Assembly: GCA_016839805.1 (NCBI GenBank)
Contig: JAEOTO010000034.1
Coordinates: 1-26,215, forward strand
Length of the DNA: 26,215 nucleotides
Source of the DNA: Candidatus Hermodarchaeota archaeon
GTDB taxonomy: Archaea > Asgardarchaeota > Hermodarchaeia > Hermodarchaeales > Hermodarchaeaceae
Reading direction: 5' to 3'
This document shows, in pieces, positions 1 through 25,453 of this stretch (its first letter is position 1; every line of letters starts with the position of its first letter). The notes under the pieces are model-generated. The model ran no database searches and was not told where the DNA came from. It was given only the letters and a program-made list of their open reading frames with translations. A program made the translations under genes and the position numbers.

Positions 1-287
1 ACTTTCAGCTCGATGAATTGCCCTTCTGTGTGAACCGTGCATTGCCTAGTTTTCCCACATGTTAACCGTGCATCACAAGTGAGAATTTTGAAAACCTTCA
101 GAATCATTTTTTCCTATGCAGGGGGGGTGTTTTTTTTTGTGAAGTGGGCATTTTACCGTGTATTTTCAGGGCAATCTTACCATGTGCTTCTGTCAAGTGC
201 ACTCTTGTTTGACCCTTATTCGGTGAAAGTGTGAAAGAAGGGGGGCATGTCTTAGCCATTTTCAGAAGATTATTAGCCAGTACATAA

Positions 288-1367
288 TCAAGGAATCTTT
301 TTCATTTTTGCCATCTGTTGCTGGAATCTTTCTATATTCCTATTGGTCTCCTCTCCGAAAATCATTACAAGTCCTTGGTATTTCTTCTCCAATGCCTCTA
401 AGCGTTCCATCACAGTCTCGCCTTGTTCAGCGAGATCAAGAAGGGGAAGGGTACACTTTGCACAAAACCGGCTTTCTGCGACATTTTCAAACTTACATCG
501 TGGACAGATCAGGGTTTCAGGTTCTGGGAGTTCGGGTAATGCTCTTGGTTTGGGAATGGGTTTCCCCTCAGCTTCCAGAAACGCGGCGACGGTATCCCGT
601 TCTGTTAGATGGGTATACTTGTCGATGATGTTACTGGAGGGGGCATAGCCCATAATGCGTTTAGCTTTGTCTTTTCCTACTTTTCGAACTAACCGCGTAT
701 TGCGCATATGTCGAAACAGATGCGGATAAACCCTTTTCGTTATCCCTGCGCGTTTGGCAGCGCGGTTAAGAATACCATGGACAGTTCGGTAGGGTATATC
801 AAATAGTAGCTCATTGGTTTCATTGCCATGGAGGCTCTGTAAGTATTGGTTGAGCCAGGGAATGGTTGCATGGCTGACATAGTAGTAGTGTTCGCCTTCT
901 TTTCCTCGTACCCGAATGGCGGTTTGGCCGTGTTTATCAATGACATCGTTTATCTGGGCATTGAGCAGTTCGCTAATCCGGGCCCCCGTGCCATATAGCA
1001 TCATAACTAGCGGTTTATCTCGAAGTCTTGTGCAGCCATCGACGAGTCGTTGTACTTCGTCTGGTGTTAGTAGGTCTTCGTCTTGTAGTCGTTGGCGATG
1101 GCGGAGGGCGTCTCGTACTGTTAGGCGGTCAAATTCTCGGGGTAGGTCATCGTTGTAGAGCCAGCGCAAGAAGACCTTTAGTGTTCGGAGATAGACATCT
1201 TTGGTGACTGGATTCTCGTATTGATCGAGCCACTGCCCAAGATCCGCTGCTTTAACCTCCGTCCACGGTTTCTCATTTACAAACTGATGAAACCGCAAAA
1301 CGACTGCACGGTAATGTTTCTTGGTGGCGGGGCGGAGGTTGGGGTTGGCGAGGAACTGCTCTAACAT
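288..1367 (-). CDS. Tyrosine recombinase/integrase (XerA/XerD-like) with C-terminal zinc ribbon and coiled coil
   Basis: N-terminal core-binding (SAM-like) region (PATKKHY...). Catalytic R in TGARISE, K in RGKEG, HxxR in HLFRH, nucleophile Y in DKYTHL. C-terminal CPRC-x10-CAKC. Confidence 0.95.
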   Translation of the reverse strand: MLEQFLANPNLRPATKKHYRAVVLRFHQFVNEKPWTEVKAADLGQWLDQYENPVTKDVYLRTLKVFLRWLYNDDLPREFDRLTVRDALRHRQRLQDEDLLTPDEVQRLVDGCTRLRDKPLVMMLYGTGARISELLNAQINDVIDKHGQTAIRVRGKEGEHYYYVSHATIPWLNQYLQSLHGNETNELLFDIPYRTVHGILNRAAKRAGITKRVYPHLFRHMRNTRLVRKVGKDKAKRIMGYAPSSNIIDKYTHLTERDTVAAFLEAEGKPIPKPRALPELPEPETLICPRCKFENVAESRFCAKCTLPLLDLAEQGETVMERLEALEKKYQGLVMIFGEETNRNIERFQQQMAKMKKIP

Positions 1368-1575
1368 ACCCTGTATATGGTTTCCATAGTTAATATGTGT
1401 TATCTTTGAGTATTGGCAGATATGTCTTCGTTATATGCCATGACCTTTGGAGGAGATGATTATCCACACCCTATACTACACGAAACAATCAGATAAACCG
1501 TATCCGGAGTTATATCAGAATGTTTTTGGTTCAATCAGTATTATGGTTGACTACGGTGTTAGGGAATCTGACATT

Positions 1576-1605
1576 AGATTACACGGTTTTTTCGCACTAT
1601 AGTGC
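1576..1605 (+). repeat. 30-bp direct repeat, copy 1; overlaps the perfect 22-bp palindrome TTTTCGCACTATAGTGCGAAAA (1589-1610)
   Basis: AGATTACACGGTTTTTTCGCACTATAGTGC, 28/30 identical to 4695-4724. Confidence 0.9.
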
Positions 1606-1647
1606 GAAAAGTTTCTCAAAGACACTTATCTGCGTCTTTTAAAAAAG

Positions 1648-1687
1648 AGAAGAAGGGAGATGCGTAGGGTGCATCTCTCCATCTTCT
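1648..1687 (-). terminator. Hairpin followed by a T-tract downstream of the GYD gene
   Basis: GAGATGC-N7-GCATCTC stem with a flanking AGAAGA/TCTTCT extension; on the minus strand it is followed by TTTTTT (1646-1641). Confidence 0.6.
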
Positions 1688-1730
1688 GAATCTATTACAG
1701 GTTAGATACACTCGTTATCACACTTGGTTA

Positions 1731-2024
1731 TTAGGGAAGTTTCTCAACGATTTTTGCTAGTTCTTCCATTGTGAAGGCTTTCATTGTCGTTGTCCGAACA
1801 TTTCCACCGGCACCTAAAGTTAAGAGAAACTGCAAAGCTACCTCGTCAGAGGGTCCCTCTGCAATCGCTACATAGTCGTATTCACCCATCGTCGAATAAA
1901 ATGCAACTAATTTCGCACCAAGTTGCTTCAAGTACGCCGTAGAGGCCTCAAACCGTTTCTGAAAGTTCTTCATGTCTTTGATGCCTTGATCCGTTAATTT
2001 CATCAAGGATATATAGAGTGGTAT
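1731..2024 (-). CDS. GYD domain-containing protein; probable start is ATA at 2024
   Basis: T-DQGIK N-terminus, MGEYDYVAIAE motif and GNVRTTTMKAF C-terminus. The in-frame upstream extension reads xPLYISLMKLT, with GGAGGG 6 nt before the ATA. Confidence 0.9.
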   Translation of the reverse strand: MPLYISLMKLTDQGIKDMKNFQKRFEASTAYLKQLGAKLVAFYSTMGEYDYVAIAEGPSDEVALQFLLTLGAGGNVRTTTMKAFTMEELAKIVEKLP

Positions 2025-2281
2025 TATTTTCCCTCCAGCATGAACTAAGTTACCGTGCTACTTAATTCCCATCGGTTCAACCCTAATTGCAGTGCATCAT
2101 GAAACCATAGAGAGAACTCGCATCTCATTCACAATTCCAAAACGTTTAGAATTTTTTTCGAGGTGCTAAGCATGGATACGTTTACCTTCTTCCCTGAAAT
2201 GCCATGGAAGACCGGTCTTGGATAAAACAACATAACCCAACGCGGTCATTTGGTATTTATTATTGGTAATTTCTGTCTACT

Positions 2282-3874
2282 TTATCGCAGGCGGTTTGTT
2301 TCCATGAACATTGCCCAGTACCTTTCGTTTCTGAAGCCAATAGTAGGTGGTTCTACTTTGAGGATCTTGACGGCAGGCTGCTCTGCCCCAAATGTCTTCT
2401 TCACTTTCTTCAGGCATGATTCGCAATAGGGTACTCCTCGAAATGCGATTGCTCCCTTCGAATCCTTTGCCCCTATGTGCGTCTCTTTCTCCTTTGGACC
2501 ACAACACAAACTACAATAGCTTGGCCACATTACTTGATCTTCAAAAAGTACCGCCTTGAATTTGGGCTTGTTAGTAATCTCTCCAGCCACATATTCCAGA
2601 ATAGATGTGGCGCGGGGGTCTTTAGCGCCTCTAAAGGCGTGGATTTTCCCTTTGTCGCTGGTCACGAAGACCATTCCTCCGGCAAGCACTGGATGTGATT
2701 TGATTTTTTCAGCTAGTTTGAATTCCCACCGTTTCATAAATTTTGAGATGTTGAAACCATAGAGTCGCTTATCCTGCAGAACTGTCACAAATGCGAATTC
2801 ACCTCCCACCACTGGAAGGCTGGCACTTGGACCAAGGAAGTCGAAAGTCCCCTCTATTACGGCTGTCCAGTCAAATCCTGTGAATGCCATCCGACTTGTA
2901 GACAGGTCATAAGCCATCAATGCTCCGAAACCTAAGGGCGTGACGAAGAGGAACCTTTCGTTTTTAGTGAGCATTCCAAAAATATTGGGCTGCGAAGGTT
3001 CCTCCTTTCCACTCTCGAGGTCAAGCTTGAAAAGTCGGTCCTTTGGACCGTGGGTCAAGATCGCATTTCCTGAAACAAGACAAGGACTGCAATTTCGTGT
3101 GCCAAAAAAGCCACCATAGCCTTTTTGTTCCCATGCGAGTGTACCGTTAACGGCGTCGATAGCATAGAATTTTCCTCTGGACGTGGCGAACCCGTAACCG
3201 ATAATCAACAGTTTTCCTTCAGCTAGTGTCGGGGCGGAGTAACCCTTGTAGTCGCCTTTGAAGGTCCATCTTTTCTGTCCTGTTTGTGCGTCGATGGCGT
3301 AGATGTGCTTGTCCTTGCAGGCGAAAAAGACCAGATCATGGCCGACTGCGAGGGGAGAAGAGATATCGTTGCCTGGTGAAAATTGCCAGCGTTTTTGACC
3401 GGTTTGTGCGTCGATGGCGTAGAGGTGTTTGTCTTCGCTTGCAACATAGACGATTCCGTCAGCGACAACCGGGGTTCTTTTAATTGCTTTCCCTGTTTTG
3501 AAGGTCCATTTCTTTTGTCCCGTGGCGGCGTCCAAGGCGTAGAGGTGCTTGTCTTTGCTCCCAAAGAAAACCATGTTGTAAGCTAAGGCTGGCCAGGATT
3601 CGATGCTACCGCCTGCTTGAAATTCCCAAACCTTTTCTAGCGGGGCTTGAACAGGACTCCCGTCGCTGCCCGTATACGCGGCGTCTCGTCTAACCATTGG
3701 CCAACCTTCTGTGCTCAATGGCCTCTCTTGTGGGATTTCTGTTTTCTCTGGCTGCGTTACAGTAGGCAGCCTTTTTCCGCAATTATTACAATATTCGAGT
3801 GAGCTTGGCATGGTCTTTCCGCAACCGCTGCAGACCACACTACTCTCGGATTCTTCCTTATCACCTAAACCCAT
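2282..3874 (-). CDS. Zinc-ribbon + PQQ-like (BamB-type) beta-propeller repeat protein with a Cys-rich C-terminal domain
   Basis: N-terminal CSGC...CNNC. Repeated DKHLYAIDAQTGQKRW blades. C-terminal CSLCC...YCESC. AGGAG RBS upstream; no signal peptide. Confidence 0.9.
   Translation of the reverse strand: MGLGDKEESESSVVCSGCGKTMPSSLEYCNNCGKRLPTVTQPEKTEIPQERPLSTEGWPMVRRDAAYTGSDGSPVQAPLEKVWEFQAGGSIESWPALAYNMVFFGSKDKHLYALDAATGQKKWTFKTGKAIKRTPVVADGIVYVASEDKHLYAIDAQTGQKRWQFSPGNDISSPLAVGHDLVFFACKDKHIYAIDAQTGQKRWTFKGDYKGYSAPTLAEGKLLIIGYGFATSRGKFYAIDAVNGTLAWEQKGYGGFFGTRNCSPCLVSGNAILTHGPKDRLFKLDLESGKEEPSQPNIFGMLTKNERFLFVTPLGFGALMAYDLSTSRMAFTGFDWTAVIEGTFDFLGPSASLPVVGGEFAFVTVLQDKRLYGFNISKFMKRWEFKLAEKIKSHPVLAGGMVFVTSDKGKIHAFRGAKDPRATSILEYVAGEITNKPKFKAVLFEDQVMWPSYCSLCCGPKEKETHIGAKDSKGAIAFRGVPYCESCLKKVKKTFGAEQPAVKILKVEPPTIGFRNERYWAMFMETNRLR
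3255..3570 (-). repeat. Intragenic tandem 120-nt repeats (propeller blades)
   Basis: GTTTGTGCGTCGATGGCGTAGA at 3282 and 3402, with a related unit near 3522; period exactly 120 nt (40 aa). Confidence 0.85.
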
Positions 3875-3908
3875 GATTCTGTCTCCTATGTGTTGGTCAC
3901 ACGCTGAA

Positions 3909-4340
3909 CTACCGTTGTAACATGAGGAGCGTATTCAGAGTAACCGAGGATATTCTTACGATGGCGTGTTTGAATTCTGAGTAGTCAAGACCTGCAACAG
4001 GTCTTCTCATAACTAGTAAGACCACGTCGTTCTCGTCACTGATTGCAAAGTGCGTTACACCCGTCTGAAAGGCGTTCCAGACAAGCAGCTGCCGATAGAA
4101 GGGGAGGAGGTTCTCCGTTGGCAGGGGACATACGGCTGCACTGAAAATTAGATCTGAATGTGTTTCTCCCTTTGGTTTGGTAACAAAGACCTGTGTTGTT
4201 ACGTTTGCATATGAGACGAAAGTGCTCGCCATTGGTACCTCGCCCGTTACCTTCTCAGGTAACGGGGATATGCGTGAATCGAATTTTTTCAAGCAGCGGT
4301 TGACGCGTTTCACACTCGCCTTAAACTCGTGATCCGTCAC
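3909..4340 (-). CDS. CesT/YbjN-like (type III secretion chaperone fold) protein; likely GTG start at 4340
   Basis: LPFYRQLLVWN...HFAI...VVLLVMRRPVAGLDYSEFKHAI pattern is typical of CesT/YbjN. Lies 34 bp upstream of the propeller gene on the same strand. Confidence 0.7.
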   Translation of the reverse strand: MTDHEFKASVKRVNRCLKKFDSRISPLPEKVTGEVPMASTFVSYANVTTQVFVTKPKGETHSDLIFSAAVCPLPTENLLPFYRQLLVWNAFQTGVTHFAISDENDVVLLVMRRPVAGLDYSEFKHAIVRISSVTLNTLLMLQR

Positions 4341-4694
4341 TCTAAACACTTCTTGTAACCCGTTGAGTTTCTCGAAGCTAGGTAAGAAGCACAATAGCGT
4401 GAAATAATAGCACACAGCATTTGCCCGGGATTAAATAATAGGAAATTAACCCGCGCATGAATTGTCAATCTTCTATCCCAGCAAACAGACCATTCTCTAT
4501 ACGCATCATCGACGCTACCTGACTCACATACGACATGCAGTTCAGGCGTGCGAATCCTCGCACTACAGCATTATCGGAAACGGTAACTAATTAATGCTAA
4601 TGATTAAGCGGCACGAATTAATACAAATAAAAAATCAGTTTACAAAAAATGTCACATAAAACACATTTGATGCCACATTAGGACCATTTAACCA

Positions 4695-4724
4695 AGATTA
4701 CACGGGTCTTTCGCACTATAGTGC
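4695..4724 (+). repeat. 30-bp direct repeat, copy 2
   Basis: AGATTACACGGGTCTTTCGCACTATAGTGC; keeps the 12-bp palindromic core GCACTATAGTGC. Confidence 0.9.
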
Positions 4725-4844
4725 ATAATTATTCAGTGCGTGTTCATTGGCTTCGGGGCTCTGATTTCTGTTGTTACTTTGAAATTGCTTCAAGGTTACG
4801 GATTTTTAACGCCATTGGTGGTAGGGTGGTGCTGAGGGTTGTTA

Positions 4845-5609
4845 ATGGAATCGCGGTGGAAGAACGTGCTACTGGTTGGGGGGCTGATTGTGTGTTCCTT
4901 TCTTCCCTTGCTCACAGCAGTGCCCTCTCTGCCTTGGGAGCGGGGATTGGTGATGATCGAGCTCTTCACAATCACTAGTCTCAGTTATCCTGTTTGGCTG
5001 CGCATTGTTCTGCATATCCTTACTTTGGTCTTGGTGTTCCTGTTAGTTTTCTTTGGGGATCGGTTGGGGCGCTTGGTCGCGGTCTATTTTGGGTGTCTGT
5101 TCTTCTTTTTCGCGATCACCCAAAACATTGCGGTTCTCCCCACCTATGGACTCACGATTTTGCTGGGGAATCTGGTTCTTCTAGCCACTTTGGGCGGTTT
5201 CTGGGTATGGGAAGCTTATCATCCCCAAAATGAGTACTCTTTTAAGCGGCTTCCCTGGTGGCGATATTGGCCTTTGCCCTTTGTCTTTCTAGCCTATTGG
5301 TTTCCTTATGGTCATGATTTGCTTCCGGATTTCAATCCCCTGCTGTTCTTAACCTCAGATTTTGGAGTCACCTTCTGCGCCACCGCTCCGCTCATCATAG
5401 CGCTGCTCACTTGGATTTACCCACGGGTTGATTCGCGGCTGTATTTGGTGACGTGTTTTGTCGGAGCGCTGATTGGGGTCTTCAATATCTTGGCTCCGTT
5501 CACCATGCCGGGGTATACCCTCTGGATGCTCTTTTTGCATACGCCGCTGATTTTCATCTCCTTCTATGGGCTCCTGCTCCCACGGCTCGTTAAAGATTCG
5601 GCGTCGTAA
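4845..5609 (+). CDS. Multi-pass membrane protein of unknown function
   Basis: About 7-8 hydrophobic segments; ATG at 4845 is in the 4839 ORF frame. Confidence 0.8.
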   Translation: MESRWKNVLLVGGLIVCSFLPLLTAVPSLPWERGLVMIELFTITSLSYPVWLRIVLHILTLVLVFLLVFFGDRLGRLVAVYFGCLFFFFAITQNIAVLPTYGLTILLGNLVLLATLGGFWVWEAYHPQNEYSFKRLPWWRYWPLPFVFLAYWFPYGHDLLPDFNPLLFLTSDFGVTFCATAPLIIALLTWIYPRVDSRLYLVTCFVGALIGVFNILAPFTMPGYTLWMLFLHTPLIFISFYGLLLPRLVKDSAS

Positions 5610-5982
5610 CTGGAAGTTTACGGTGTTGGGTCTTCTTGCGGACCAGTTTGATCATCTCATCGAGGGTCTGGGTGGCATTCATCTCTTCTCGGGTAATGAG
5701 GAGGGTCAGTTTATCGTTGGTCTTCAAATAGGCGGCAGGATATGTGGCATCTGGGACCTGGTATTGGGCATTGAATTCATCGCGGTGGAGAAATTCTACT
5801 GAAATACCTAAACTCTGAACGAAATCTTTCCACTCTTGTTTCATCCCGAAATTTCCGTAGGTGACGGCACATAAACTGCAGGGATATGTGGATGGTTTGA
5901 CGATTTTGTGGACGTAATCTTTCAAGGCATTGATTTTTCCGCTATCGGCGTTGTAAACAAACAGTAACGTAGGTTGGGTCAT
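5590..5982 (-). CDS. Conserved hypothetical protein with a CxLC motif (probable thioredoxin-like fold)
   Basis: LLFVYNADSG...TYPCSLCAVTYG...EFLHRDEF, a recognisable uncharacterised family. Confidence 0.8.
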   Translation of the reverse strand: MTQPTLLFVYNADSGKINALKDYVHKIVKPSTYPCSLCAVTYGNFGMKQEWKDFVQSLGISVEFLHRDEFNAQYQVPDATYPAAYLKTNDKLTLLITREEMNATQTLDEMIKLVRKKTQHRKLPVTTPNL

Positions 5983-6034
5983 AACGGGCTAACAGGGACA
6001 ACGCTTTTTAAGACTATCAAATTCGCGAACGGAA

Positions 6035-24457: not shown

Positions 24458-24724
24458 CCAATCACCACTAACTAATTCTCACTGAGTTACACCTCAACCA
24501 CCATAAAAGACTAGCAGCACAGATTAAATCTCGATTTCTTTCGACGCAATATTCTGACTTATTCTGTTAGAAGAAGTAAATGTTCATCAAACGGTTCATT
24601 TGTAAAAATGGATGCACCAGGAGTCAAACAACAGCTCTCCTGGTGCTTAACAAGCTGCTGGTGCCATTTCGTTTATGTACCCTCCAAACCTATTGTCGTA
24701 CACAGCGATTACAGGCGAGCTGAT

Positions 24725-25453
24725 ATGATAGATACATACGAAAAGGTGTATTACACCGAGCTTCTTCCACATGAATTCCAAAAACGTTTGAAAGAAAAGC
24801 CTGTGGCTTATTTGCCCTTAGGTACACTCGAATGGCATGGTGCTCATCTTCCCTTAGGCTCAGATAGCATCCAAAGTGAGGGATTAATGGTGGCATGTGC
24901 CCGTCAGCTGGGGGGAATTGTAATGCCCCCCATATATCTTGGACCTGACCAGGCAATCCAAGCTCAGGACGGGCAGACATTCTATGGGATGGACTCAATA
25001 CCTGATACACTGCCACCACGGCAACTCAAAGGAAGCTGTTACTGGGTTTCTGACGGATTCTTTAAATTACTAATTGACATGATTTTAATCCAAATAAAAC
25101 GCGCAGGATTCCAAGCGGTGTTCGCAGATGGACACGGACCCTCTCGTTGGTCATGGGTGAAAGATCTCCCAGAGCGTGAAGCACGATTCGGATTGAAGCT
25201 GTTCGGAGTTACCTCCGATATCAAACGTAAATGGAAATATCAGATCGATCACGCAGGGCAGAATGAAACATCGATAATGCTGGCTCTCAGGCCCGAACTA
25301 GTTGACATATCAAAGCTACCACAGGACCCATCAATTTCACCAGAAAGAATCTTGGGCAAAGACCCACGTCAAGCCACCGACAAGTTAGGGAAAAAATATT
25401 TGGACGCGGCTGTGAATATTATCAAAGAAAAGTTCGTCAAATCCGGTTTATGA
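24725..25453 (+). CDS. Creatininase/amidohydrolase family protein; likely start 24725
   Basis: LPLGTLEWHGAHLPLGSD, DGHG and DHAGQNETS. Confidence 0.9.
   Translation: MIDTYEKVYYTELLPHEFQKRLKEKPVAYLPLGTLEWHGAHLPLGSDSIQSEGLMVACARQLGGIVMPPIYLGPDQAIQAQDGQTFYGMDSIPDTLPPRQLKGSCYWVSDGFFKLLIDMILIQIKRAGFQAVFADGHGPSRWSWVKDLPEREARFGLKLFGVTSDIKRKWKYQIDHAGQNETSIMLALRPELVDISKLPQDPSISPERILGKDPRQATDKLGKKYLDAAVNIIKEKFVKSGL

Follow-up and report, generated by a model that had tools for sequence, protein, structure and literature searches.

A candidate attachment site beside an archaeal tyrosine recombinase, a probable host palindrome and a putative non-integron cassette system in Hermodarchaeota

A 26,215-bp contig of Candidatus Hermodarchaeota archaeon (JAEOTO010000034.1, assembly GCA_016839805.1; hereafter the window) carries a tyrosine recombinase gene next to a 3.1-kb interval bounded by palindromic 30-bp direct repeats. 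The host is an Asgard archaeon, and an actin-like protein is encoded in a genome of the same phylum. A preliminary description took the interval for a non-autonomous module inserted by the recombinase at the palindrome, as part of a non-integron cassette system. Our analysis supports this interpretation in part: such a cassette system does exist in the genus, but its site would be a different one, which we call site X, and not the palindrome. We suggest, with a probability of about 55%, that two sites were conflated, the palindrome being a site of the host, while the recombinase acts at X and probably moves gene cassettes in trans. Integrons are the textbook system of gene-cassette capture. 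What is new here is a candidate enzyme and a candidate primary site for cassette arrays, and no description of this cassette system was found in the open-access literature.

Site X is made of a left arm TTGGCAGATAT and a right arm TTATATGCCAT around a core GTCTTCG that begins 57 bp from the recombinase ATG (coordinates of all features are given in Table 1). Between X and the gene there is a conserved block which may be a promoter. Positions 1389-1441, covering this block and X, match the DNA upstream of the integrase in L107/G006 and in an ENA contig at 50-52/53 bases, and the adjoining non-coding DNA diverges (G, C and L numbers denote genomes, contigs and loci). Reads of runs X2 and X3 align through X. 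The assembly holds no second two-armed X, and about 33 one-armed core sites are present in it. Among 15 genomes of the genus, an intact two-armed X was found in only 3; most congeners gave no X, and in G010, which has lost the integrase, the site has decayed and other genes stand to its left, so that X tracks the integrase and is not an essential dif site.

The geometry of the site can be read from a paralogue. In G006:C34 (L065 4525-8947), a 4.4-kb island with a truncated related integrase at its inner end is bounded by an 11-bp direct repeat, which begins 57 bp from the integrase ATG; the island is absent from G000:C11, whose empty site is at 4169-4179. Because the spacing of 57 bp is shared, the best reading of X is a right attachment site, belonging to a unit that bears the recombinase and would run off the left end of the contig, with the 3.1-kb module outside it. 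We consider it likely that X is the site of the window recombinase. The module had been thought to be inserted at the recombinase's own site; X is the better-supported site, and the geometry of the family would leave the module on its chromosomal side. A dif-like string at 4649-4676 (15/22 against the arms of X) was rejected, since hundreds of places in the genome are equal to it and its 9-mer occurs at chance frequency. Exact matches to GTCTTCGTTATAT in G002, G008 and G011 are without arms and look like chance. A contig of run X1 that starts exactly at 1412, with the integrase almost uncovered, was not used, because strain bubbles break contigs elsewhere and 75% of the run was read.

The catalytic residues of the recombinase (R130, K156, H216, R219 and Y251) are intact and invariant in the alignment, and the enzyme is on this basis predicted to be catalytically intact. 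It belongs to a small, rare and well-supported clade, separate from the host XerA, whose gene lies on contig C28; with 118 bits for the XerA model NF040815 (cut-off 220), it is not a XerA orthologue. The IntI model TIGR02249 gives 51 bits (cut-off 265), and the additional domain of IntI is missing, as the protein is colinear with T. acidophilum XerA and has no insertion between K156 and H216. Generally, the integrase gene tends to sit at contig ends, and the window contig ends 287 bp past it. Scans of genome contigs returned nothing, or only archaeal integrases of 27-36% identity. In G009, a broken copy of the integrase shares its contig with a cassette repeat, and what remains of the C-terminus of another integrase of this clade is found near P0007, at G000:C21 141546-141728 (L030 1550-1730). 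The metagenome pattern matches L105, L106 and L108 were discarded as apparent chance hits in unrelated DNA, leaving L107 as the only true relative. Viral contigs yielded neither the palindrome nor X, a cassette repeat or a relative of the integrase.

The link between X and gene cassettes comes from the arrays of the genus, in which we counted 98 cassette sites across 11 genomes, about 33 of them in G000. In all of them, GCA-nn-TAY forms the left box and GTCTTCG the core, and the right module includes an ATAACAC box at +19 or +20, in many cases with an inverted-repeat module in front. Pairs of cassettes with one common flank switch at GTCTTCG plus 0-3 nt, also between species (G013:C204 versus G000:C1; G009:C51 versus G000:C38), and some cassettes are nearly letter-for-letter identical between species. 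Thus the junctions of the cassette system fall at GTCTTCG, and not at the palindrome, where they had been placed before. On a model built from cassette repeats only, the left box and core of X score 23.8 bits (median 22.6; maximum 20.8 in 4.6 million control positions). The GTGTTAT box beside X is the ATAACAC box inverted; it stands 20 bp to the left of the core at X, against 19-20 bp to the right in cassette repeats, and the rest of the left flank of X shows no mirror of the cassette right module. A complementary right arm is found at X alone among the 98 sites (8/11; next best 6). In G005, a hybrid joins a full cassette-repeat left half at the core to the right arm of X, which would be the product expected of an exchange between a repeat and X. 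Since cassette repeats have the same left box and core as X and exchange their flanks there, the enzyme of X probably also moves cassettes.

Several further observations concern the cassettes. At the right end of the contig (26188-26215, minus strand), an internally deleted cassette repeat, half an inverted-repeat module fused to a GTCTTTG core, has a polarity opposite to that of X, and cassette repeats seem to point towards the window neighbourhood from both sides. A gene at 24656-25453, creatininase-like from its translation, is located between two cassette repeats in G008:C66, so there is overlap between the right part of the window and the cassette gene pool. Decayed cores of cassettes in between the neighbourhood genes were also considered and rejected, as they do not rise above background. 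Three further, unrelated families of repeats delimit single genes in G000 (C33 40261-43460; C21 209624-212920; C50 104780-107290), and this genome may hold several site-specific systems. A link of AGATTACACGG to the C50 family was rejected, with only 7 shared bases.

From the motif distribution, the linkage of X to the recombinase, the common core, the crossover position and the one repeat/X hybrid, all of them seen in the sequences, we infer every enzymatic step as follows. The enzyme would bind GCA-nn-TAY boxes and exchange strands across the 7-bp core, as tyrosine recombinases do (PMC8371274). It would integrate its own unit at the two-armed site and would move, in trans, non-autonomous cassettes with one box and accessory modules, stacking them into arrays, and each insertion would regenerate a usable junction. 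Tentatively, an archaeal cassette system not yet described could have the recombinase as its autonomous member and X as its primary site, with arrays spread over at least 50 kb, an enzyme other than IntI and, in place of attC hairpins, a 7-bp core. That the enzyme of the window serves the arrays is likewise a possibility to which we give slightly less than even odds.

Several points weigh against this proposal. The left end of the recombinase unit is not assembled, and the DNA to the right of X is different in every relative, so no empty attB can be reconstructed. The integrase is rare (three clusters at >=84% identity among 5.8 billion), and it was not found in the array-bearing genomes G008, G011 and G012 (88-91% complete). 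The G005 hybrid indicates that X and repeats recombine, not which enzyme acts, and the opposite junction (X left half, core, cassette right half) was not found. These observations bear on a rival in which the host XerA runs the GTCTTCG arrays and the island of the window recombinase only occupies that core or has arrived at it by convergence. In G008, G011 and G012, no tyrosine recombinase other than XerA was found, and near-identical cassettes across species imply a widely available enzyme. However, archaeal dif sites have an 11-6-11 layout and are single-copy (PMC8371274, PMC2958812), against 11-7-11 for X, and X, found intact in few genomes of the genus and decayed in G010, is not an essential dif. 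Moreover, integrase-less arrays are the rule in archaeal integrons (Ghaly et al. 2022, PMC9668308), and the gene of the window tends to lie at contig ends. XerA is still a real rival, though a somewhat unlikely one.

A second rival keeps the enzyme and changes the geometry, with X as an attI-like platform and cassettes inserted between its arms, away from the integrase, as in integrons. X does lie directly upstream of the recombinase like attI (PMC9668308), and the G005 hybrid could then be the last junction of such an array. But all five integrase-linked copies of X are intact and two-armed, with no cassette inserted, and the paralogue in G006:C34 has its island on the integrase side, which makes this arrangement quite unlikely.

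The palindrome behaves differently from X. Its consensus is AAAGTTTCGCA-CTATAG-TGCGAAACTTT, 28 bp in an 11-6-11 layout, and the 14-mer WTTHGCACTATAGT occurs in 12 of 14 congeners, with up to five copies per genome, while it stays at chance level in the remainder of 301 phylum genomes. Conserved copies are located about 100 bp from an origin recognition box (ORB) at the cdc6 origin of G000, G009, G010 and G014, with an orthologous copy at the origin of G011. In most genomes, a copy follows moxR-vWA at 7.8 kb from the origin. Another is contained in rimI; there, five genomes retain the same synonymous codons and the flanking codons vary. One more copy marks the left border of the gene neighbourhood of the window in G000, G006, G007, G009, G010 and G014. 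The refuting observation for the preliminary description would be a motif independent of recombinases, and this is what we found in part: the palindrome is far from any recombinase in 12 of 14 congeners, and the DNA examined around the oriC, moxR-vWA and rimI copies contains no recombinase. We therefore hold it very likely that the palindrome is a host site independent of the window recombinase. Its independence from gene position and its presence at oriC suggest a putative binding site, most likely for a replication or chromosome-organising protein; given the 11-6-11 layout, a dif-like role may also be considered. A function as operator of the integrase was rejected, since the distance to the ATG is not fixed.

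The parS and matS sites are known sites of chromosome organisation. The palindrome resembles them as a lineage-specific motif with few copies per genome, position-independent, at or near oriC and in genes, but differs in that no ParB, SegB or MatP partner was identified for it, and its binding is putative. The origin region (L137 8600-9900; G000:C22 202660-203850) has three ORB boxes, and the palindrome, about 100 bp from ORB-2, stands between a gene for a TrmB-like helix-turn-helix protein and a 151-aa gene with a possible winged helix; an Atlas look-up of the latter protein gave hypothetical clusters only, some of them weakly Penicillinase_R. A gene for an AAA ATPase, followed by that of a small basic ribbon-helix-helix-like protein without Pfam match, is found 4 kb from oriC (L137 3408-5121; G000:C22 197407-199120), and the two are possibly a partition-like pair. 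A weaker copy (19.8 bits) is present within coding sequence at G000:C22 241450, 38 kb from oriC. In several congeners, the palindrome after moxR-vWA is followed by a conserved GC-rich non-coding stretch (L080, L085 and L100, about 1650-1960), possibly a structured RNA, for which no Rfam match reached the gathering score.

Given its layout, the palindrome could also be a dif-like recombination site of XerA, at which the host enzyme inserted the 3.1 kb as a module, in the manner of pdif modules or integrative mobile elements exploiting Xer (IMEX), which are bacterial systems. As in these systems, the duplicated palindrome encloses cargo; the neighbourhood that it borders in six genomes is shuffled, with one copy in G006 and two in the window, and the polarity of the cassette repeats appears directed at that neighbourhood from either side, as it would be at a terminus. 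Against it, copies with the same symmetric spacer are found at oriC, 8 kb away and in rimI, where free recombination would invert or split the chromosome, yet relatives keep a colinear oriC region. The 47-kb neighbourhood contig of G008 showed no copy, no pair of relatives places a crossover at the palindrome, and the 10 bp common to the window copies outside the arms are not explained by one insertion. We regard this alternative as unlikely.

Turning to the repeats of the window, the 30-mers have 28/30 identity and the same orientation, as described before. In the 2.3-Mb assembly (87% complete), only these two places are within 6 mismatches of the 30-mer, and for the 16-mer core, 0.02 strand matches in the window would be expected by shuffling where 4 are seen, which confirms that the pair is real and beyond chance. 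Copy 1 begins 209 bp upstream of the recombinase ATG at 1367, and positions 1589-1610 form a perfect 22-bp palindrome (folding z -4.5). Copy 2 was said to lose symmetry after the core, but its right arm TGCATAATT is a normal allele of the host motif, also present in G006 and at the origin site of G011; copy 2 is thus a whole site, and its reading as an attR hybrid or recombinant scar was rejected. The 10 bp in common outside the arms indicate that the two copies are related by descent. A half match at 4558-4571, TCGCACTACAG, 140 bp to the left of copy 2, is probably chance or a decayed third copy.

The three genes between the repeats are all on the minus strand, as previously noted, and encode a GYD protein (PF08734; gene at 1731-2006, with its hairpin at 1657-1677), a PQQ-type propeller with an N-terminal Zn ribbon and a YbjN/CesT-like protein. 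No tRNA was found in the window, in line with the site not being a tRNA gene, and an Rfam search of it gave no credible match. The region of the GYD gene has its counterpart in G010 and G014 between dinB and a radical-SAM gene, with no palindrome adjoining, so the leftmost 620 bp of the supposed module are resident neighbourhood DNA. Among the 14 congeners, two of the three genes were not found, which speaks for the preliminary description; these are the propeller gene and the YbjN/CesT-like gene, the latter not found among 18 family genomes either. From these comparisons, the enclosed 3.1 kb is a mosaic of the resident GYD gene, the relic of a deleted radical-SAM gene and two accessory genes. 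In this neighbourhood, gene orientation is largely kept between species and gene order changes. A local rearrangement that joined resident GYD DNA and the two accessory genes may have duplicated the palindrome.

For the original model, in which the adjacent recombinase inserts non-autonomous modules at the palindrome, there is some evidence. The palindrome is close to the right of X in the window, in G006, in G010 and in run X3, where a relative of about 94% identity has the propeller gene, the YbjN gene and copy 2, and carries a variant of the palindrome 9 bp beyond X. The single-repeat allele sought in relatives was recovered in G006 and in L107, its JGI counterpart (recombinase start, X, one palindrome and the 4839 gene). 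However, the spacing between X and the palindrome is variable (0, 8, 9 and 144 bp), no palindrome lies within 94 bp of X in the ENA contig or near X in G005, most copies of the palindrome have no recombinase nearby, and the cargo is partly resident DNA. Moreover, a circular junction joining 4724 to 1606, or an empty-site joint between the palindrome copies, was not seen in four runs (assembled contigs, window 1-6000). This model is accordingly very unlikely.

Table 1. Coordinates of the features discussed in the text (numbered from the first base of the window)
Feature	Position	Strand	Remarks
Tyrosine recombinase, 359 aa	288-1367	-	SAM-like N-terminus, C-terminal Zn ribbon
Conserved upstream block	1389-1412	-	TATA-like element and box GTGTTAT (1397-1403)
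Site X, candidate attachment site	1413-1441	+	Arms 11-7-11, core GTCTTCG 1424-1430
Direct repeat copy 1	1576-1605	+	10-bp shared extension and most of the 28-bp host palindrome (1586-1613)
Resident GYD gene and downstream hairpin	1637-2091	-	82-86% identity to congeners
Relic of deleted B12-binding radical-SAM gene	2105-2257	-	Upstream region and ~9 codons
Accessory Zn-ribbon/PQQ beta-propeller gene	2282-3874	-	Sister-genus homologues 41-49% identical
Accessory YbjN/CesT-like gene	3909-4415	-	
Direct repeat copy 2	4695-4724	+	Complete host palindrome 4705-4732, 24.3 bits
Resident membrane-protein gene	4839-5609	+	Directly after the single palindrome in the G006/L107 allele

Compared with known systems, the cassette system is not an integron. 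It is like integrons, archaeal In0 elements and clusters of attC sites lacking integron-integrases (CALINs) included (Ghaly et al. 2022, PMC9668308), in having a tyrosine recombinase with a primary site directly upstream, X being conserved with the gene, and arrays that are polar, consist of swappable single-gene cassettes and often lack a recombinase in the vicinity. It differs in the lack of the IntI additional domain and in its crossover core, GTCTTCG instead of the attC-type GTTRRRY, which is also missing from the perfect or near-perfect palindromes; moreover, X has two arms in an 11-7-11 layout, and none of the five integrase-linked X sites is followed by a cassette. With the XerA, XerC, pNOB8 and SNJ2 integrases (Badel et al. 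2021, PMC8371274; Wang et al. 2018, PMC5861418), the recombinase shares SAM and Phage_integrase domains, the R-H-R-Y tetrad and a candidate attachment site whose distance from the gene is constant; short direct repeats, as at islands of these integrases, bound the island of its paralogue in G006. Its target, however, is not a tRNA gene, and dozens of chromosomal cassette junctions carry the same core. Positions of SNJ2-type sites are counted from the 3' end, whereas X is upstream of the start codon, and SNJ2 proper is confined to Halobacteria (PMC5861418; PMC8371274). The palindrome has the 11-6-11 layout of archaeal XerA/dif (Cortez et al. 2010, PMC2958812), but it is multi-copy, found at oriC and in coding sequence, and has a symmetric spacer. 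In summary, the system operates in the manner of an integron platform, or of an island with satellites, and falls outside the integron, XerA/dif and SNJ2 families.

With a single 359-aa protein and two short DNA sites singled out at this locus, the question comes within reach of a routine plasmid recombination assay. The palindrome, specific to the genus and set at a constant spacing from the ORB, could lead to a factor that binds origins or chromosomes in Asgard archaea. If our reading is true, a second solution to the handling of gene cassettes would exist in Asgard archaea, built from an ordinary island integrase, and cassette arrays could evolve from an integrative element and its non-autonomous satellites.

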